Assembly (NCBI RefSeq): GCF_044324785.1
Contig: NZ_CP172127.1
Source of the DNA: Escherichia coli
Lineage (GTDB): Bacteria; Pseudomonadota; Gammaproteobacteria; Enterobacterales; Enterobacteriaceae
DNA: 64,000 nt
Reading direction: 5' to 3' (one strand)
This document shows, piece after piece, positions 7,611 through 37,329 of this stretch (position 1 is its first letter; each line of letters opens with the position of its first letter). The notes under the pieces are model-generated. The model was not told where the DNA came from and ran no database searches. It saw only the letters and a list, made by a program, of their open reading frames with translations. Made by a program: the position numbers and the translations under genes.

Positions 7611-7889
7611 CGAAAACAATCCCGTGGTAGCAAAGCGGGCATTTTAGCTGACCGAAAGAGAAAAGCAAACGTTTGCCACATCCTCATCTAAATATTTAAA
7701 TGAGATAAATGTACTTTTTTATATAACTTTTAGTTGTTTTCTGCTTAAAATCCATGCCATTTTTCTATTTTCAGCTAAGAATTCGAACCAGGAAAGCATG
7801 ACTCGATACTCGTCATATTTCGCCTTACTGCAAATGCGCGATGAAGTATGACGAGTATGAAAGAGTGATGCGGACACAAAGGAGTAACT

Positions 7890-29893: not shown

Positions 29894-32653
29894 TCATTCT
29901 TCAGATGAGTTATAATCTCCTGGCTGGTAATTGAGTACATAAACGTTTATTTGTCGTCCCTGAATACGTGGTGATTTTCTTTGGTATCCACGACCGCTGT
30001 TTGGTGGGGTTAGCATCCCGGCTTTTTTCAACACTTCAGCAAACTGTTTTGCGTTGAAACCACATGCGATCTCCTTTTCAAATGTGGCCGGGAATGTGTA
30101 GAAAATCATTGGGCTTTCGTCATGTTCTCCACGCTGACGGTATCCGGCTAAATCTTTGATGGGCAAATCTGCCGGGCTGTATGGAAATGGTGCAAAACGG
30201 CTAAGCCCATAGGCATTAAGAAATGCCTCCGTTTGTTCAATAATCTGCTGATGCTCTTTGTTACCTGTGCCGAACTCGCGCAACCATGCGTTATAGCTGT
30301 GCTGTATCGCATCACGGCATGTCTGAGCATCCCAGCCTGTTACAACCTCGCCTAACAACAATGCGGCCTCCAGAATGGCAAATCGCGCGGCTACACGGTG
30401 AACCTGCTCACCATAATCGGATGGGATCAGGCTTCTCCATCTGCTTTCGCAATCACGAACGGTTTTAATAGCCTGTTGCTGGTGGTGTGCCAGCCATTTA
30501 ATCCACTCACGCCCGGACGCGCCGTGGTGATGCTGGTAAGCGTCTTTCAGTGCGTCTGCGTGCTGTTTTCCGTTCTGGTAATCGTGAAAGCGTACTGCTT
30601 TACTCAACGGAATATTCAGCAGTCGCACCAGTTGCCCGGCTTTGGTTTTTCGCCCGGAAGTAGCGATAAATGTTTCTAAATCCATTTCTCCGGTGCTGAT
30701 TGCCACTGTACGCCAGCGTTTTAGATCCCGGTTTCCACCATCTTTAGCGCCTTGCAGTTTCCCTACACCGTTAAATAACGCATAGGCAGACTGTGAAACG
30801 CTGACAGGATCAGCGCCCTGACCAACTTCATCAAGCGGCATTAGTCCGTCATTGTGGGCGGCGGCCTCATTTGCCAGCCCCAGCGCGGTTCCGTACCACG
30901 TCAGCCGCAGTAAATCAGGGTTGCCGTATAAGCTGCTCGCCACGTTTGCCGTGGTGGTCTTACCTGCGCTCGACTGCTCATAGAAATGAATGCCGAACCC
31001 GTCAGCGCCCACCAGCCCAATCAATGGCGCTGCCAGTGCTGCGCCGATCCCGGTCATCATTGAATAGTTACCAAAGGCCAGACGCGCCACGTTATCACGC
31101 CAGCTTTTCGCGCTCCCTGAGACGGTATATCCGGCTGCGGCTGAGCTTCTCCCGCTGAACAGCACAGGATTTTCAGGTGTTCCGATGATTTCCCCATCAG
31201 GCATGATGTACGCTCCGCATTGCCAGCCAGTGGCATGAGCAACACGCCACAATTCACGAGAGCCACTGCGTTGTAGCCAGTCTGCCAGTATTGCTCTGAG
31301 GCTGCTTTTGGTCGTGACATTTACCCCACCAGCTTTAAGTGTGCGCCATCCTTCACGTTCACCAATATCAGCCAGTGGAATGGCAGCGGTTGTCGGCGTT
31401 TCAGAACCAAACGACAGCCAGCGAAGAATGAGATACTGGTCTTTATCGTCTCTGCCAGTACCGATAACGCTTAACGGAGAACATAACCAGCTTTCGTTAT
31501 TGATGATTTCTCCACTCTGGCTGTCAGCTCTCGGAGATACCCAATAAATACCATCCTCGCGGCTTTCTATTCTTGGTTTCAGTGGGTCGGTATCCATAAC
31601 CTTAAAATCGCTTCCCTCAATGGTCTGTGGCTCCTGTTTCACGCCATTACCCTGTGGTTGGTACATTGACTTATTGAACGCTTCTGTGGCGCATTTAATG
31701 CCGTGTTTTTGGTGGTAATCATTCCAGTCTGCTTTGTGATCTGTCGGGGGTAATGCCACCCATCCAGAAACAGATAAAGCTGCTTTTTCTGCTGCTATTC
31801 TCCCCGTGTTTTGTCTTCCTTCGCTGTGGTCGTTATCCGCAGCAATGATGATTTGTGCTGAAGGAAATTTATCCCGCAGTACCTGGGCGACATATAACAG
31901 GTTCCCGGCATCAATCGCAGCCACTGTCAGCGCCTCTGGACGAATTAAATGGGCAGATAATGCCGTTGCCAGACCTTCTGCGATTAAGATGCTCTGTGTT
32001 GTTTCTGGTGCGTTTATGGCGTGATATGCCCCCCGCTTTGCTGAACCTGTCAGGAGTCTTTTTTCACCATGTGAGGTAATAGTCTGTGCTGCTGTTACTG
32101 CGCCGGATTTATCCACCAGCGCCAGCAACAGAGATCCATCGGGCAACACGGGGAATGTAAAATCACCTACCCCTTTCGCAACCAGATAATCAGATTTGCC
32201 GTTTACAGCCTTTCTGCGCATGTCATCAAACTGACGGGAAAACGTATCCCGTCTTTGTTGTTCGTCCTTCTCTGCCCTTTTCAGGCGCTCCTGTTCGCGT
32301 CGCTGGCGCTCGGTTTCCAGTTGTTCCCGTTTCTGGCTGGTGGCTTCTGGTGTTTCCGTTGTCCGGTAATCAATACCCAGAACATCAGCGGCAAGAAGCG
32401 CCGCCTCTGTTGTGTCGCAGTTATTTACGCGTTTAATTAAATCCAGCCCATCACCAGCGCCGCACTGATTACAGATGAAGCTACCGCGCCCGTTGTCATC
32501 GAACCGGAATCGATCTTTGCCCCCACATGCAGGGCAGGGAGCATGACGGCGCGGAGAGTCAGGGACATTTATGTTCAGGCAGCCCAGCACATGAGGCCAG
32601 TTGTTTTCAGACGCACTGATAACCTGACGGATAAGATCAATGTTTCGCATCAC
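29894..32653 (-). CDS. P4 alpha-like primase/helicase replication protein (zinc-ribbon, Toprim and P-loop NTPase domains)
   Basis: 919-aa ORF; N-terminal CPACGG...CNQCG zinc ribbon; Toprim-like AADNDHSEGRQNTG; Walker A SSAGKTTT in C-terminal half. Confidence 0.8.
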   Translation of the reverse strand: MMRNIDLIRQVISASENNWPHVLGCLNINVPDSPRRHAPCPACGGKDRFRFDDNGRGSFICNQCGAGDGLDLIKRVNNCDTTEAALLAADVLGIDYRTTETPEATSQKREQLETERQRREQERLKRAEKDEQQRRDTFSRQFDDMRRKAVNGKSDYLVAKGVGDFTFPVLPDGSLLLALVDKSGAVTAAQTITSHGEKRLLTGSAKRGAYHAINAPETTQSILIAEGLATALSAHLIRPEALTVAAIDAGNLLYVAQVLRDKFPSAQIIIAADNDHSEGRQNTGRIAAEKAALSVSGWVALPPTDHKADWNDYHQKHGIKCATEAFNKSMYQPQGNGVKQEPQTIEGSDFKVMDTDPLKPRIESREDGIYWVSPRADSQSGEIINNESWLCSPLSVIGTGRDDKDQYLILRWLSFGSETPTTAAIPLADIGEREGWRTLKAGGVNVTTKSSLRAILADWLQRSGSRELWRVAHATGWQCGAYIMPDGEIIGTPENPVLFSGRSSAAAGYTVSGSAKSWRDNVARLAFGNYSMMTGIGAALAAPLIGLVGADGFGIHFYEQSSAGKTTTANVASSLYGNPDLLRLTWYGTALGLANEAAAHNDGLMPLDEVGQGADPVSVSQSAYALFNGVGKLQGAKDGGNRDLKRWRTVAISTGEMDLETFIATSGRKTKAGQLVRLLNIPLSKAVRFHDYQNGKQHADALKDAYQHHHGASGREWIKWLAHHQQQAIKTVRDCESRWRSLIPSDYGEQVHRVAARFAILEAALLLGEVVTGWDAQTCRDAIQHSYNAWLREFGTGNKEHQQIIEQTEAFLNAYGLSRFAPFPYSPADLPIKDLAGYRQRGEHDESPMIFYTFPATFEKEIACGFNAKQFAEVLKKAGMLTPPNSGRGYQRKSPRIQGRQINVYVLNYQPGDYNSSEE

Positions 32654-33008
32654 CGTACCCCACGTGGTCTATAGCGTTTGCGATATGGCTAACCAGCATC
32701 TGCCACTTGGTTATTCCGTAATCAGTCAGCATGCCATCATTGTTTAGCCACATATCAAATTCAGCGGTTGTCGCAAGTTTCCACTTATCGCCGTGGACAG
32801 TCCTCATTGCTGGGTACATGAATGCGCAAATCAGATCACAAACATCTGACGGCTTCAGAGATGTAGTAATGGTGCGTCCCTCTGGCGTCTGAATTGCCAT
32901 TTTCTCTTCACCAGTAGAATGAAGGTTATGAATCCACACAGCACCAGCAATCTTTGCCACCTGCTCTCCGATTGCGGAGCTAAGCGCCATTTCTGCATTT
33001 TCACGCAT
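32637..33008 (-). CDS. hypothetical protein (P4-like early operon)
   Basis: 123-aa ORF; stop overlaps primase start. Confidence 0.4.
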   Translation of the reverse strand: MRENAEMALSSAIGEQVAKIAGAVWIHNLHSTGEEKMAIQTPEGRTITTSLKPSDVCDLICAFMYPAMRTVHGDKWKLATTAEFDMWLNNDGMLTDYGITKWQMLVSHIANAIDHVGYGDAKH

Positions 33009-33342
33009 GAGAACCTCCCGCTACAGTTGCGCCCATGTCATTAACCATGCTTTGCCATATCTCACGCCCGACGTCAGTCAATCCGTCCTTAGTGACGCAA
33101 CGTTCAAGAAGCTCGATCCCCACGGTTTCCCACTGCGGGTAGAACACTTTCATGGCTGCCAGTGTGTAGCTATCGATCAGGCTGCGAACGCCTTTTACTC
33201 CATTGACGATTTCCACACGGACGGCCTCGCCGTCCGCATCAACCATGAAATAGTCCCCGCCGCTGGTGGAGGTAATGTGGTTATACAGTGCCGACGCATA
33301 CTTATTTGCCAGCGCATTCAGTCGGAAATTTTTAGTAATCAT
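33001..33342 (-). CDS. hypothetical protein (P4-like early operon)
   Basis: 113-aa ORF overlapping downstream gene start by 8 nt. Confidence 0.4.
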   Translation of the reverse strand: MITKNFRLNALANKYASALYNHITSTSGGDYFMVDADGEAVRVEIVNGVKGVRSLIDSYTLAAMKVFYPQWETVGIELLERCVTKDGLTDVGREIWQSMVNDMGATVAGGSHA

Positions 33343-33352
33343 GGCTCCATCC

Positions 33353-33955
33353 TCAGTGCGTCACTGGTTCCGCTGGCATGCCGTTTTCATTCAGTTCAGC
33401 TATAAAGCTGTTGTGAAGTTCAGCAAGCGTTTCACGCCCAAATGGAGTCAGTGCTCCTTGTTCCACATCCATCATGGCTCTGTAGAAAATGATGGCGCGT
33501 TCTGTGCCAGACTCGATGCCAAAACGTTCTATCATCGCGCCCTCAATGTTGTTTGCCATAGCGAGGCGCTCTGCTACTGGATACAGCGGCATGGCGACGA
33601 TGCCGTTGGAATAAACAGCCACTTCGGAAGGATTGCCAGTATCATCAATGATGCTGACAGTGCCGTTTTCCTCTCTCATTTCCAGCATGAATACTGTTGC
33701 GATCAGCCATCTCCACATAATGACGTTATGCTGTGATGTGTAATCGAAATATCCCTGGTTGCCGCCATCGGCAATAGCGAGATGTATTGACATACCTTCA
33801 TCTGGTTTATCGTCATAATCCCCGGCATCCAGACGATTTACGGCATCAATATATGAGATGGCCTCAACGCGTTCTGTCATGCCATCGTTGCTGCGGTACA
33901 TGATGTTTACGCCGTCAGGCGTTGCTTCTGCATGGAAAGTTAAGAAATTATTCAT
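33353..33955 (-). CDS. hypothetical protein (P4-like early operon)
   Basis: ~200-aa frame from MNNFLTFHAEATPDG; listed ORF is N-terminally over-extended into upstream gene. Confidence 0.4.
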   Translation of the reverse strand: MNNFLTFHAEATPDGVNIMYRSNDGMTERVEAISYIDAVNRLDAGDYDDKPDEGMSIHLAIADGGNQGYFDYTSQHNVIMWRWLIATVFMLEMREENGTVSIIDDTGNPSEVAVYSNGIVAMPLYPVAERLAMANNIEGAMIERFGIESGTERAIIFYRAMMDVEQGALTPFGRETLAELHNSFIAELNENGMPAEPVTH

Positions 33956-34169
33956 GTTTCGCTTCGCCTGAATGATTCTGTAACTCATATTTGCCCAACA
34001 ATTCGTCCGCTTCCTGAATAGCTTCTGGTACGCCATTGAGCAGTGACATAACCGCGCCAATCATTAACTTGTCTCTGTTGCTGGGGCTGGCCCCTTCAAG
34101 CCAGAACCCTAAAACAGTCTGAACCTGTTCGATGCGACATTGCGCTTCAATGAGCTGGATGTTGGTCAT
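33948..34169 (-). CDS. hypothetical small protein
   Basis: 73-aa ORF with ATGA start/stop overlap to upstream gene. Confidence 0.35.
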   Translation of the reverse strand: MTNIQLIEAQCRIEQVQTVLGFWLEGASPSNRDKLMIGAVMSLLNGVPEAIQEADELLGKYELQNHSGEAKHE

Positions 34170-34429
34170 TTCGCACTCTCCACATCGATTAAACCGATAT
34201 CTATCAGGGAGGTAACTTTTTGTAGCCAGCTATTGATTACTGTCGCCTGTTCCCCTCCCACCGAGGGAACAATCTCATTCATCACATGAACCAGACCTGT
34301 GCGCGCTCTGGTAAGCCGTTCAGTCGCGCAATCTGCGGGAGTGAATGTGTCTGGATATGGCTCTTCACGCCCCAGCAATGATTCAATTTCCAGCTCACAC
34401 GGATGACGATAAATTAAGTTGATATTCAT
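34166..34429 (-). CDS. hypothetical small protein
   Basis: 87-aa ORF with ATGA start/stop overlap. Confidence 0.35.
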   Translation of the reverse strand: MNINLIYRHPCELEIESLLGREEPYPDTFTPADCATERLTRARTGLVHVMNEIVPSVGGEQATVINSWLQKVTSLIDIGLIDVESAK

Positions 34430-34620
34430 TTTTCACCCCCAAGAATTACCAGCTCGGCACGGGCATCGTTAACCAAAGATGAGCACGCTTTAATCGCATC
34501 CACGACATCAGCAGCGTCCATTTCTTCAGCCGAAAGACTGACAGCAACCAGGACAGCCGCTGCTTGCTCGATTAATTGAAGTGCGGACGTAAGGCGAGGG
34601 GTATTAATTGAGTTATTCAT
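34426..34620 (-). CDS. hypothetical small protein
   Basis: 64-aa frame from MNNSINTPRLTSAL; start overlaps upstream gene stop. Confidence 0.3.
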   Translation of the reverse strand: MNNSINTPRLTSALQLIEQAAAVLVAVSLSAEEMDAADVVDAIKACSSLVNDARAELVILGGEK

Positions 34621-34828
34621 TGGTTGCCCCCGTTTTTCCTGGCATTTCGCCACCTTCCAGCAGGAAATGAACGTCACGAACGGCGAGATCCAATATCGCG
34701 AGTAACGCCTTCAGTCTTTCGTCTCGTGAGGGAGAGTTGCTCACCAGAATGTCGTTAATCACTTCTGTCAGTGTGATGATCTGGCTTGTGCGTTCGAGGG
34801 GATCCATATGCACATCGTAGGTTTTAAT
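34613..34828 (-). CDS. hypothetical small protein
   Basis: 71-aa frame MIKTYDVHMDPLERTSQ...; its ATG overlaps the stop of the 34824-35042 ORF (ATGA). Confidence 0.35.
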   Translation of the reverse strand: MKTYDVHMDPLERTSQIITLTEVINDILVSNSPSRDERLKALLAILDLAVRDVHFLLEGGEMPGKTGATNE

Positions 34829-35042
34829 CATGAGCCACCTCCATGCGGATACGACCAGCAAAAAAGCAGACGTGATCGCGCACCAGAGAACGGCGAGCAT
34901 CGCGTTCAGACTCGGCAGCAATATGATGAATTTTGGCGGTAATTGTCGGGCAATCGCGGCGAACTGCGGCGATAATCCAGATAAATTGCGGTTTTTGGGT
35001 AGGGGTAGTAGCCAGCATGTGGCAGCCTCCATTCGATAGCAT
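34824..35042 (-). CDS. hypothetical small protein (first gene of the overlapping early operon; alternative to the 355-aa read-through frame)
   Basis: 72-aa ORF with balanced charged composition; translationally coupled to downstream gene. Confidence 0.3.
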   Translation of the reverse strand: MLSNGGCHMLATTPTQKPQFIWIIAAVRRDCPTITAKIHHIAAESERDARRSLVRDHVCFFAGRIRMEVAHD

Positions 35043-35848
35043 GTAACGCTACCACCGGAAACGCCAATTTCGCTGGTGGTAGCCCAGACAGGGTTGGCGT
35101 AACCGGCTCGAATGGATACCGGCGCTTCCGAAGAAGCCCCTGCCTGAGCCACCATTGATTGACAAAGGCGCTGGATTATACACCAACGCCCAAAAAATGG
35201 GTGAGTCAGACCTACGACATAAAAAAAGACGCTCGGCGCGTCATATGTCGCCATTCGATTTACCAGGACGCCAATCCCGGCACCCGTTTTATGAGGTGCC
35301 TTATAACCATAAACCGTGTTGCCGCATAACGGCAAGCTCTTTTTTATGGACTCCGAAAACTCGCTATTGGAAGCACCAGATGCACAGTACATCGCGCTCA
35401 TTTCGTTAACGTCACGCACGTGGACGAATGTTTTTGTGGAGTCACTACACGAGCGGAAGACATCATCTACGACCAGAAATTTTCTGGCGCAGCCGCTGAC
35501 CTTCTCAACGCTAACACCATCGACCGTAATTTCTGACATAGTTAAGGCATCCGCTCCCACCACCAGAAAATGATAAACTTTGCTTGTATCTGCTGTATTA
35601 ATGCCAGACTTTGCTGTCATATTGCTGGATTTTGGCGACATACCTGCCAGTGAAAATGTCTTCTTCTGGACGGTTAGCATTTGTTAACCTCCGCGAACTC
35701 CTTCATGAAACGTGCCAGCGGTTGTACGCATGGCGATTGATACCCGTCGCGATAAAACGTCACTCGGTTGTGAGACACGCTTTCGACAGTAACGAGTGCT
35801 CCGTGGGCATCTTTGTAGCGTTTTTGAGGTTGTGGTGTTCCTGTCGGC

Positions 35849-36682
35849 TTAAACATGGACCGCCTCCAGACGCTTGGCGAGCCAGCGTTGCGACAGGCGG
35901 GTGAGTTCTCCTTTGCGCTGCTCATATTCCATGCCCATATCAATTAACGTGATATTGGTGCTTTCGAGATATGAGAGGTGCTCAAGCTGTTCTGCGTTCA
36001 TATGGTCGCGAGGTTCGCCAGAATAGCCATTTATCCGCGCCCACTGCTTAGCAGTTAGCCCACCAAGAACGATACGAGAAATCATATTGCTCTCGTTTGT
36101 GTAGTGGTGTTGCTGCGTCGTTTTCCCCTGCTCGGCACGGGCCATATTCAGCGCATCGCACATTGGCTTAAAGTTGTTTGCGGCACTAATACGGGCTTTT
36201 AGCTGGCGACGATAGCGGGCGGCGATTTCAGGCACGCTACGCTGTAATTCTTCCTCGCACTGGATGAAATAACGACGGATAGCGCGACCCTGATCATTGC
36301 GTTCGATCATTGCCAGTTCTTTCGCCATTCCGACACTTAACAGATAGTCTTTGCCGGGTCTGCCAGACTGCTTAATCTTGCTGTAAGCCGCGCCATTCGG
36401 GCTTTTCCCCAAATTTGGGGAAATTGTTTTATGGACTGAGTAATCGTGCCCAATGGTGAAGTCATATTCAGAGATGCGATCAGTGATCCATGTAGAGAAG
36501 TCTTTTCCCACGCCCAACGCTTTGTGTAACGCTTTTGCGCTAACAATATTGGTTTCACGCCCACCGATATGACCAGGAATAACCGGGACAATTGCGGCAA
36601 ATTCATTACCGTTAATTGTGCCCAGAGAGGCGTTCAGATGAGGGGCGGCCTCAGAAATTAATCTGCTTTTTTCGATGTTCAT
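35849..36682 (-). CDS. phage antirepressor-like protein (AntA/KilA-type domains)
   Basis: 277-aa ORF; N-terminal half resembles phage antirepressor N-domain as I recall it; basic helical C-terminal half. Confidence 0.4.
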   Translation of the reverse strand: MNIEKSRLISEAAPHLNASLGTINGNEFAAIVPVIPGHIGGRETNIVSAKALHKALGVGKDFSTWITDRISEYDFTIGHDYSVHKTISPNLGKSPNGAAYSKIKQSGRPGKDYLLSVGMAKELAMIERNDQGRAIRRYFIQCEEELQRSVPEIAARYRRQLKARISAANNFKPMCDALNMARAEQGKTTQQHHYTNESNMISRIVLGGLTAKQWARINGYSGEPRDHMNAEQLEHLSYLESTNITLIDMGMEYEQRKGELTRLSQRWLAKRLEAVHV

Positions 36683-36694
36683 TTTCAGTCTCCG

Positions 36695-37126
36695 TTAGGC
36701 GGCGTTAAACGCGTCCGGGTAGAGTTTCAGAATGTCGGCAATTTCCTGCTGAGAAAGTCCGTTGTGATCATTTATGTTCGCAAGATGGTTAACATGAGTG
36801 ATCACTTTCAGAACATCACCACGGCAGGAGAAACGGTAGCGGAGGTGTGTTCCGATACCATCAGGATTCTTTTCGTCGATACGCTCCAGAATGATTCCAA
36901 GCTGGCGTTCTAACTCTGTTGCATAGTTACGACCAGAAGACAGACGGCAGTAGCGAAGAATGTCATTTTCTGTCCATCCCTCTATACCAGTACGCAGCAT
37001 ATAGACTCTGGCACGATGTTTTTTCGGTGTGCGCTTTGGTGCTTGAAGGGATTTTTTCAGGGGCGTAACATCAGACACGCGAATATCTGAATTAGCCGCC
37101 TGTAATGGGCGGTTTTTCTTTTCCAT
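36695..37126 (-). CDS. hypothetical protein
   Basis: 143-aa ORF; start overlaps alpA-like stop by 1 nt. Confidence 0.4.
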   Translation of the reverse strand: MEKKNRPLQAANSDIRVSDVTPLKKSLQAPKRTPKKHRARVYMLRTGIEGWTENDILRYCRLSSGRNYATELERQLGIILERIDEKNPDGIGTHLRYRFSCRGDVLKVITHVNHLANINDHNGLSQQEIADILKLYPDAFNAA

Positions 37127-37329
37127 CAGGCCACCTTCCCGCGGCGTTCTGCCAGCCAGTTGTGAATCTCAACCGCATCAAACGCAGTTATTTTTTCTCC
37201 CAGCTTTACTGGACGTGGTAGTGAACCGTTTCTTACTTTACGGTCGATGGTGGATACACTAACGCCCAGCAATTCAGCCAGGCGAAAGCGTCTGATATAG
37301 CCTTTTGTAGGGATAGTGTCGATGTTCAT
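37126..37329 (-). CDS. alpA: AlpA-family phage transcriptional regulator/excisionase-like protein
   Basis: 67-aa protein with HTH LAELLGVSVSTIDRKVRNGSLPRPVKLG typical of AlpA/Xis-like proteins; near the integrase. Confidence 0.75.
   Translation of the reverse strand: MNIDTIPTKGYIRRFRLAELLGVSVSTIDRKVRNGSLPRPVKLGEKITAFDAVEIHNWLAERRGKVA

Follow-up and report, generated by a model that had tools for sequence, protein, structure and literature searches.

A putative P4-type immunity and early-replication control module, crossed by a long open frame, in an EcCIMP1-like island of Escherichia coli

We analyzed a 64,000-nucleotide (nt) stretch of Escherichia coli contig NZ_CP172127.1, here called the window, whose numbering supplies all coordinates in this report (Table 1). 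It contains an integrated island resembling EcCIMP1, an E. coli phage-inducible chromosomal island (PICI), and our subject is the early operon of this island, at the head of which a reading frame of 355 codons is crossed by two RNA genes and by a small gene in another frame. All genes from the AlpA-like gene (37329) through the primase (29894) lie on the minus strand, and the successive stop/start overlaps along this chain, from the AlpA-like gene to the primase, are 1, -12, 8, 7, 8, 4, 4, 8, -10, 8, and 17 nt. Eight overlapping minus-strand genes ahead of the primase had been predicted, and the listing of open reading frames (ORFs) and the junction table return all eight (64, 72, 64, 87, 73, 200, 113, and 123 amino acids), with ATGA at most of the stop/start junctions (e.g., ATGATTAA, ATGAATAA, AAATGAATA, and AAATGACC). 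Tight coupling, with the primase as the last gene, is the organization of a phage-type early operon such as that of the satellite P4, as the original prediction had it.

Stem-loops had been noticed in the region 35050-35200, together with the suggestion of RNA-based immunity as in P4, and both observations hold: the stem-loops are those of an Rfam C4 RNA and of a hairpin preceding it, and C4, the counterpart of the P4 CI RNA for which a structure search had been advised, was found well over its gathering score. The partner of C4 is an isrK, or SeqA-type, leader RNA, and the same Rfam isrK and C4 pair is found in P4 and in phage SfV. The leader is built as two hairpins, target sites for C4, and then an intrinsic terminator, for which a terminator scan gave a terminator-like site (stem at 35228-35242, followed by a U-run). 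Its target sites are TTGGCGT at 35268-35274, in the loop of the second hairpin, and seqA, TCGAATGG, at 35251-35258. C4 itself has a long closing helix enclosing two internal hairpins; it presents a specificity loop, seqB (UAUCCAUUCGAG, 35107-35118), and a second pairing site, ACGCCAA, at 35094-35100. The two kinds of target recur downstream of C4, where seqC overlaps the Shine-Dalgarno sequence of the Icd-like gene (GGAGG, 35026-35030). Both RNAs are supported by covariation: among 28 diverse C4 sequences 100% of helix cells are paired and 13 pairs show double, compensatory changes, and among 18 isrK sequences the helices are 95% paired, with nine pairs showing double changes. A blastn search with the region aligns it to P4 records exactly at the ORF annotated as 'put. 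ash gene (aa 1-137)' or 'cI gene product', and IsrK has been equated with P4 SeqA, and C4 with the P4 CI RNA (PMC3632133, PMC4825925). By these matches in sequence and structure, the region is an RNA immunity module homologous to that of P4.

Relatives were sampled from viral contigs with an exact DNA pattern for the C4 core, without any assumption about ORFs, which gave 120 loci (104 of them unique) with 21 loop types. An 8-mer complementary to the locus's own loop is found at a fixed position, +35 after C4 and over the Shine-Dalgarno sequence of the next gene, in 103 of the 104 loci; the own-loop complement also occurs in the leader of 91 of the 104, and foreign loop types match in 0.2-0.5%. 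The second C4 site exists in four co-varying versions, and its complement is present on each side, in the leader and downstream, in 92 of 93 loci. The allele of E. coli ET120 (L131) differs from the window in its loop, seqA, and seqC, which are altered together, and in almost nothing else; it reads as a natural specificity switch.

Two side observations concern the spread of these modules. In two further alleles (L129 and L130) and in EcCIMP1 (L132), the whole module corresponding to 35020-35300 is replaced at constant length, so that immunity modules are evidently swapped between otherwise near-identical islands. Some lambdoid-type contigs (L035, with cores at 7714 and 8580, L118, and L121) have either two C4 cores, separated by approximately 870 nt, or an additional C4-like stretch within the antirepressor ORF that follows; these may be tandem immunity modules.

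The 355-codon frame is present as first described, on the minus strand. Its ATG overlaps the stop of the DUF4222 gene by 7 nt and its TAA overlaps the ATG of orf64 by 8 nt, and the ATG lies 345 nt upstream of the -35 hexamer of the putative promoter discussed below. We grouped the relatives at 90% identity into 26 clusters and counted stop triplets between the 5' end of the leader and the downstream ATG. The long frame has 2, against 60 and 106 in the other two frames, and is open in 24 of the 26 clusters. This depletion is seen in every sub-segment, including the poorly conserved spacer (0/15/9 stops, long frame first) and the stretch of 75 nt that precedes the leader (4/41/32). In 97% of unique loci, the frame already lacks stops 180 nt or more before the C4 motif and stays free of them past C4, as compared with 0-10% in the other frames. 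The stop depletion, the complementarity of loop and targets, and the covariation are all much greater than chance would produce. The distances from leader to C4 fall into seven classes (60, 87, 99, 105, 135, 138, and 144 nt), all multiples of three, and the odd spacings of 56 and 98 nt belong to exactly the two clusters in which the frame is broken. In 99 of 110 loci the long ORF shares its frame with the downstream gene, which encodes Kil/Icd, a Rha/Ant antirepressor, or a 77-amino-acid protein. A first ATG overlapping the stop of the upstream ORF (ATGA) was scored in 12 of the 26 clusters; the P4 class was scored at an earlier ATG, yet ATGATGATG of P4 makes the same stop overlap. In all seven island alleles compared, the window included, the 1,068 nt are kept open, and separately so in EcCIMP1.

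The original prediction had leaned toward RNA rather than coding for this region. Its RNA part stands; its exclusion of the frame does not, since the frame is kept open in nearly all clusters and is coupled to its neighbors, and the choice between RNA region and coding frame is a false one. The same evidence makes it improbable that the frame is a product of chance or annotation, never translated, with function confined to the RNAs, Icd, and the small genes. Such an account would sit comfortably with the lack of a codon signature over most of the frame, with its overlap with two RNA genes, a promoter, and a real gene in another frame, with a small-terminase fragment antisense inside it, and with the occasional truncation of the frame to a pseudogene by the NCBI Prokaryotic Genome Annotation Pipeline (PGAP). 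It does not accommodate a depletion of stops in clusters sampled without reference to ORFs, which extends to non-conserved segments, nor the indels in multiples of three and the coupling at both ends. Moreover, the equivalent frame of P4 is said to be functional, as eta. In the Salmonella prophage Gifsy-1 the equivalent frame, SPA-tagged orf45, is translated (PMC4825925). By position the 355-codon frame is the analogue of P4 eta.

The small gene nested in another frame, first described as a 72-amino-acid ORF (34824-35042) coupled to the next gene, is a real gene of Icd/Kil type, and the ATG of orf72 overlaps its stop. It matches NCBIfam NF033153 with E = 3.7e-20 (71.7 bits against a cut-off of 25), and its product can be aligned to P4 Kil (L002 1781-1978). 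GGAGG stands 8 nt before the second ATG (35018), and because relatives start at the equivalent position, a protein of 64 amino acids is likelier than one of 72 starting from ATG 35042. Membership in the Icd/Kil family predicts inhibition of cell division or killing, and analogy with the known systems makes this the presumptive first gene under RNA control. Matches to families were otherwise few: Pfam and NCBIfam scans gave none for seven of the eight small genes, and PHROG matches were to families of unknown function only. For orf72 the Pfam, NCBIfam, and PHROG scans gave no family match, and its variation among the seven island alleles (2/1/6 variable sites by codon position; synonymous/nonsynonymous 5/4) looks coding.

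Counted from the C4 motif, the ATG of icd stands at +105 in the window and at +106 in 99 of 110 relatives; the window's out-of-frame state is shared by 10 loci and is, on sequence comparison, a minority condition that arose by a small indel. With icd shifted by this indel, phrog_6928, a P4-eta-like profile of 202 positions, is divided between two frames, its positions 31-149 falling in the 355-codon frame and 138-194 in Icd, and the long frame nests orf72 rather than icd as its in-frame end. The +1 frame through icd is open in all nine distinct out-of-frame genes, against 17 of 34 in-frame controls, which is no more than suggestive of selection on that frame. One could see in this arrangement a decayed eta-kil fusion, in which a 2-nt change at the start of icd made the continuation through icd into orf72 fortuitous, and in which only the stretch to seqC matters. 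The split profile, the predominance of in-frame relatives over the window type, and the fact that half of the in-frame relatives have an open icd +1 frame by chance alone would fit such a history. We give it little credence, since every distinct out-of-frame icd gene keeps the +1 frame open, the window frame stops exactly on the start of the next gene, the full 1,068 nt are retained in seven alleles and EcCIMP1, and the separate-frame arrangement of Gifsy-1 works by coupling. It differs from the interpretation that we favor, a long frame kept open to override immunity, solely in how far downstream translation matters.

As a protein, the frame is annotated by PGAP as an 'ash family protein', and it matches Pfam PF10554 (Phage_ASH) over residues 124-232 with E = 3e-30 (105.3 bits against a cut-off of 26). 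This match corresponds to nt ~34985-35311, that is, to isrK through C4, and in P4 eta the family covers residues 22-146, from isrK through the start of kil. Likewise, in P4 (L002 1379-1978 and 1971-2258) PF10554 falls on the isrK and C4 RNA genes, and P4 epsilon is PF25738. Because the family match coincides with isrK and C4, the 'Ash family protein' is a conceptual translation of two RNA genes. Homologs with synonymous-site conservation over the full 355 amino acids, which had been named as the finding that would speak for the frame as a protein, were not seen: homology covers approximately codons 106-233 only, without codon periodicity, and homology to other families spans only nt ~319-857 of the ORF, from the promoter through icd. 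Column entropy likewise has no codon periodicity over isrK, C4, and the stretch after C4, and a third-position excess in the gene downstream of seqC, in that gene's own frame. In the seven island alleles the module region has 97 variable sites, distributed 36/31/30 by codon position, with a synonymous/nonsynonymous count of 7/90. The frame is therefore open but its protein sequence unconserved, as the substitutions show no codon pattern.

A count of P4-like satellites nevertheless took PF10554 as its profile for P4 'epsilon' (PMC8628076), and the Ash domain has been reported in regulators of Stx phages (PMC8951638). A genuine Ash regulatory protein that the RNA motifs merely overlap would agree with the strength of the Pfam match, with the PHROG labels of repressor or regulator, with the conservation and annotation of the ORF in hundreds of E. 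coli genomes, with the open frame, and with a mild second-position deficit in its N-terminal third. It is nevertheless the least probable of the alternatives, as the family match is confined to the isrK and C4 stretch, where codon periodicity is lacking and nonsynonymous changes prevail, the amino-acid changes track covariation of RNA stems and the switching of loop and target, the ORF outside that stretch has no relation from one family to another, and the 'repressor' label goes back to the annotation of the P4 'cI/ash' ORF. The P4 immunity determinant, for its part, was reportedly later shown to be an RNA. No function of the Ash domain is known (PMC8951638).

A candidate for a constitutive promoter, the counterpart of P4 PLE, lies immediately upstream of the leader, and transcription from it would start at G 35299. 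The motif cTTGCn-18-TAnnnT is found at the same position in the 26 clusters, including P4 (TTGCCT-18-TATAGT). A TATAAT hexamer had also been pointed out as a possible promoter. We find no -35 hexamer at 16-18 nt from it and no TG extension, and it occupies the loop of the spacer hairpin, whose stems co-vary; it is also not conserved outside the sub-family of the window, and we rejected a classical promoter at TATAAT as the main explanation of this hexamer. A consensus promoter scan reported neither the PLE-like promoter nor a promoter at TATAAT, its single match (35508-35479) being not above shuffled sequence. In the EcCIMP1 allele, the hairpin has other stems (GATGCGG/CCGCGTC) and an identical TATAAT loop. 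The hairpin lies outside both Rfam models, and its UAUAAU loop is conserved within the sub-family of the window. Several other loci (L077, L043, L060, L045, L106, and others) have a hairpin at the same position in the spacer, with wholly different stems that are nevertheless paired.

The closest known system is that of P4. In both, the antisense RNA is complementary, in two parts, to one site upstream of it and to another, downstream, that overlies the ribosome-binding site of the first gene; the first controlled gene is a Kil/Icd homolog, a primase ends the operon, and a long ORF begins on the stop codon of the preceding gene and traverses the entire module. In P4 (L002 1379-1387), ATGATGATG overlaps the stop of orf88 and opens a frame of 197-199 codons that ends as the 65-amino-acid Kil, a layout that reportedly matches the published description of eta and kil. 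The two differ in their loops (CCUGUGAA in P4, CCAUUCGA in the window), in the length of the spacer between leader and C4 (107 nt in P4, 62 nt in the window), and in the genes upstream (orf88 in P4, AntA/B and DUF4222 in the window). The window ORF, unlike that of P4, has 355 codons, is out of frame with icd, and runs into the next gene; its N-terminal 106 codons are unrelated, with the terminase fragment on the other strand. Matching by Pfam and PHROG recognized none of the P4 downstream genes epsilon, orf151, and cnr in the operon.

The isrK-orf45-anrP locus of Gifsy-1 likewise has an IsrK leader with a terminator, followed by a processed RNA of approximately 80 nt that is complementary to IsrK. 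There the downstream gene is the antirepressor AnrP instead of Icd and replication genes, orf45 has 45 codons, and the emphasis is on trans-activation by short IsrK. The AUG at the 5' end of C4 in the window (35153-35155, minus strand) is invariant (A5 T6 G7) in 28 diverse sequences and lies in the 355-codon frame; by count we take it to correspond to the first start codon of orf45, and, as in orf45, it may serve as an internal or second point of ribosome entry. STnc1160/orf45' is the Gifsy-1 counterpart of the CI RNA, and orf45 is translated, is conserved in nucleotide rather than amino-acid sequence, and is coupled by AUGA to the downstream antirepressor gene, which needs it (Hershko-Shalev et al. 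2016, PMC4825925).

The third system, immI of phages P1 and P7 (C4 RNA, icd, and ant), is the type member of the Rfam C4 family, and its first gene belongs to the Icd family. The antisense RNA of P1 is processed out of the transcript of the same operon; it occludes the ribosome-binding site of icd and thereby prevents downstream expression. The P1 module, unlike that of the window, controls an antirepressor and not a primase operon. P1-like phages matched the isrK part of the blastn query; P1 is otherwise outside the loci compared here.

By homology to P4, P1, and Gifsy-1, the parts of the window module could operate as follows. In the quiescent state, the weak constitutive promoter (35335-35306) would initiate at about 35299, and the intrinsic terminator that closes the IsrK/SeqA leader (78 nt) would stop the majority of transcripts. 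Read-through RNA would be processed to a C4/CI RNA of approximately 88 nt, whose loop (35107-35118) and single-stranded patch (35094-35100) would pair with the leader sites; the same patches would pair with the sites just 3' of C4, covering the ribosome-binding site of Icd. With Icd untranslated, the RNA would be terminated and the replication genes through the primase would stay off. On induction, transcription would enter from the upstream AlpA-controlled operon, whose genes (35674-37329) would feed ribosomes into the 355-codon frame: ribosomes ending the DUF4222 gene would reinitiate at AUG 35680 and, in translating the frame, pass over the promoter, the terminator of the leader, C4, its target sites, and, in the +1 frame, icd, until the overlap of stop and start passes them to orf64 and from there toward the primase. 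By analogy with eta, translation of the long ORF would prevent termination, for which the selection for an open frame is indirect support. In P4, eta is reportedly translated only on transcripts from the upstream promoter PLL, where its translation prevents Rho-dependent termination and makes them insensitive to immunity. The frame of the window would be selected for openness, and not for a conserved protein, because continuous translation would likewise make its transcript insensitive to RNA immunity.

Several points weigh against this interpretation. The PLE-like promoter agrees with the consensus at only 8 of 12 positions and scored too low for the consensus scan to report it. Because the 355-codon frame and icd are in different frames, the window departs from the strict layout in which eta ends as kil, and the test of the icd +1 frame is weak, with a background of 50% and related loci. 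The 26 clusters are not phylogenetically independent, a dependence that the other-frame control shares, and p-values drawn from them are nominal. Codons 1-106 are without homologs in other families and show a mild second-position deficit (17/8/19 variable sites by codon position), so that some protein-level constraint there is possible; a neutral simulation of the N-terminal third, a test without power, gave P = 0.57 for at least one chance stop. For the role of eta translation in P4, the check covered only its predictions for the P4 sequence, and the model for the window locus was built from sequence alone.

With these points counted, we put the probability at roughly 0.7 that the region is the immunity and early-replication control module, of P4 type, of an EcCIMP1-like PICI, with the long frame kept open for override. 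Icd, the RNAs, and the long frame are probably all real and used on different transcripts. A regulatory system of this kind is known, and the module is an ordinary member of it, not a new one.

Table 1. Features of the operon, its RNA module, and the neighboring island genes in the window
Feature	Coordinates	Strand	Evidence and remarks
AlpA-like helix-turn-helix gene	37126-37329	-	PGAP annotation of relatives
hyp143	36695-37126	-	PGAP annotation of relatives
AntA/AntB antirepressor gene	35849-36682	-	PGAP annotation of relatives
DUF4222 gene	35674-35856	-	Pfam
355-codon frame	34613-35680	-	ATG 35680, TAA 34613; PGAP name 'ash family protein'
P22-gp3-type small-terminase gene fragment	35426-35535	+	Antisense inside head of 355-codon frame; ~110 bp
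Putative constitutive promoter, counterpart of P4 PLE	35306-35335	-	-35 TTGCCG 35330-35335, 18-nt spacer, -10 TATGGT 35306-35311
isrK / SeqA-type leader RNA	35222-35299	-	Rfam RF01394, 67.1 bits against gathering score 50
Leader-to-C4 spacer hairpin	35167-35191	-	GGGCGTTGG / TGTATAAT / CCAGCGCC; TATAAT (35175-35180) is the loop; read from sequence
C4 / CI-type antisense RNA	35072-35159	-	Rfam RF01695, 79.5 bits against gathering score 45
Downstream C4 target	35026-35067	-	TTGGCGT 35061-35067; seqC UCGAAUGGA 35028-35036
Icd-like gene, 64 amino acids	34824-35018	-	NCBIfam NF033153
orf72	34613-34831	-	ATG overlaps icd stop (ATGATTAA); in frame with 355-codon frame, forming its C-terminal part
orf64	34426-34620	-	Junction table; PGAP calls in relatives
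orf87	34166-34429	-	Junction table; PGAP calls in relatives
orf73	33948-34169	-	PHROG match, unknown-function family
orf200	33353-33955	-	PHROG match, unknown-function family
orf113	33001-33342	-	PHROG match, unknown-function family
orf123	32637-33008	-	Junction table; PGAP calls in relatives
Primase/helicase, 919 amino acids, TOPRIM + DUF927	29894-32653	-	ORF; PGAP names in near-identical loci; last gene of operon
P22-like ejection cassette beyond primase	24473-29131	-	Four genes
DUF2824 (gp14-like)	28670-29131	-	Ejection cassette
gp7	27999-28676	-	Ejection cassette
Inj_translocase/gp20-like gene	26578-27999	-	Ejection cassette
gp16-like ORF, 701 amino acids	24473-26578	-	Ejection cassette

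In near-identical E. coli genomes, the island that carries the operon is flanked by yicC and dinD. Judged by gene content, gene order, and identity, it is an EcCIMP1-like PICI: EcCIMP1 and the window share int, AlpA, a hypothetical gene, AntA/B, DUF4222, 'ash', an Icd-like gene, small genes, primase, DUF2824, a gp7-like gene, ejection proteins, and PerC, and they are 90% identical in nucleotide sequence over the 1,068-nt frame, which is intact in both. They differ in site of integration (the tRNA-Thr/proA-yagU region for EcCIMP1, yicC-dinD for the island in the window) and in the allele of the immunity module. EcCIMP1 is an E. coli PICI mobilized by the P22-like phage Kapi1, and its helper-dependent excision and transfer have been shown for EcCIMP1 itself, with Kapi1, as has induction of its alpA promoter by helper or mitomycin (ISME J 2025, PMC11773190). 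As far as that paper was searched, the Ash family protein figures in it only among the conserved genes, and neither an RNA module nor a pac site is mentioned (PMC11773190). The control module of the window is, in its sequence features, P4-like, but the element that carries it appears to be a PICI rather than a strict P4-like satellite. Pfam scans of the operon ORFs and of ten other island ORFs found P22 gp7, Inj_translocase, DUF2824, IrrE, and an insertion sequence (IS) integrase, and no Psu, delta, or Sid family, with the limits that Sid has no Pfam model and that the island ORFs were scanned in part; the PGAP names in a near-identical island likewise include no psu, delta, or sid. A search of the window for tRNAs gave none, so that it contains no tRNA attachment site.

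A satellite that encodes the injection proteins of its helper, as the cassette beyond the primase does, is unusual. In the cargo region of the island, an IS3-type transposase ORF (21642-22547, minus strand) with rve, rve_3, and HTH_21 domains adjoins a gene for an ImmA/IrrE peptidase (21072-21560). Elsewhere in the window, a JUMPstart (ops-containing) RNA element (50436-50474, plus strand; Rfam, 55 bits) stands just before a low-GC stretch at 53-58 kb (GC 0.32-0.38); it is presumably the leader of a polysaccharide or lipopolysaccharide operon, unrelated to the island.

The terminase fragment inside the head of the 355-codon frame is 85-92% identical to nt ~268-374 of the small-terminase gene (terS) of P22-like phages, and it is present in EcCIMP1 as well. 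The homology begins at the annotated 22-bp pac site of P22, whose equivalent in the window (GAATGTTTTTGTGGAGTCACTA, 35426-35447) agrees with P22 at 15 of 22 bases and with Bas106 at 16 of 22. An exact search of viral contigs with this 22-mer found only other copies of the island and no phage, and the Kapi1 genome has no homolog of the fragment, its TerS being of another type. The island alleles carry either an AEDIIY or an AEQVIY version of the adjoining codons, as do different phages, which suggests exchange of the fragment with phage terS genes. The fragment may be the packaging signal of the island and, as such, a predictor of helper range.

Two linked readings, which go beyond published work, can be joined here. 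The Ash 'domain', known from P4-like satellites, from PICIs of the EcCIMP1 type, and from many lambdoid or P22-like phages, where it often extends Rha/Ant antirepressors at the N-terminus, would be no protein domain but the footprint of the IsrK-C4 switch in the override frame, and the terS/pac piece would be the packaging signal of the EcCIMP1 family. We hold the two together only tentatively, as a possibility rather than an expectation. The PF10554 'ash family protein' and the 'transcriptional repressor' labels of PHROG and RefSeq, which derive from the old P4 cI/ash ORF, name the translation of two small-RNA genes. If the second reading is true, the efficient helpers would be P22-like phages with the matching TerS type, not Kapi1, and the terS/pac fragment is a testable lead on the packaging mechanism that the EcCIMP1 study left open. 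The RNA switch, for its part, gives EcCIMP1-type islands a regulatory model and about 20 predictable immunity types.

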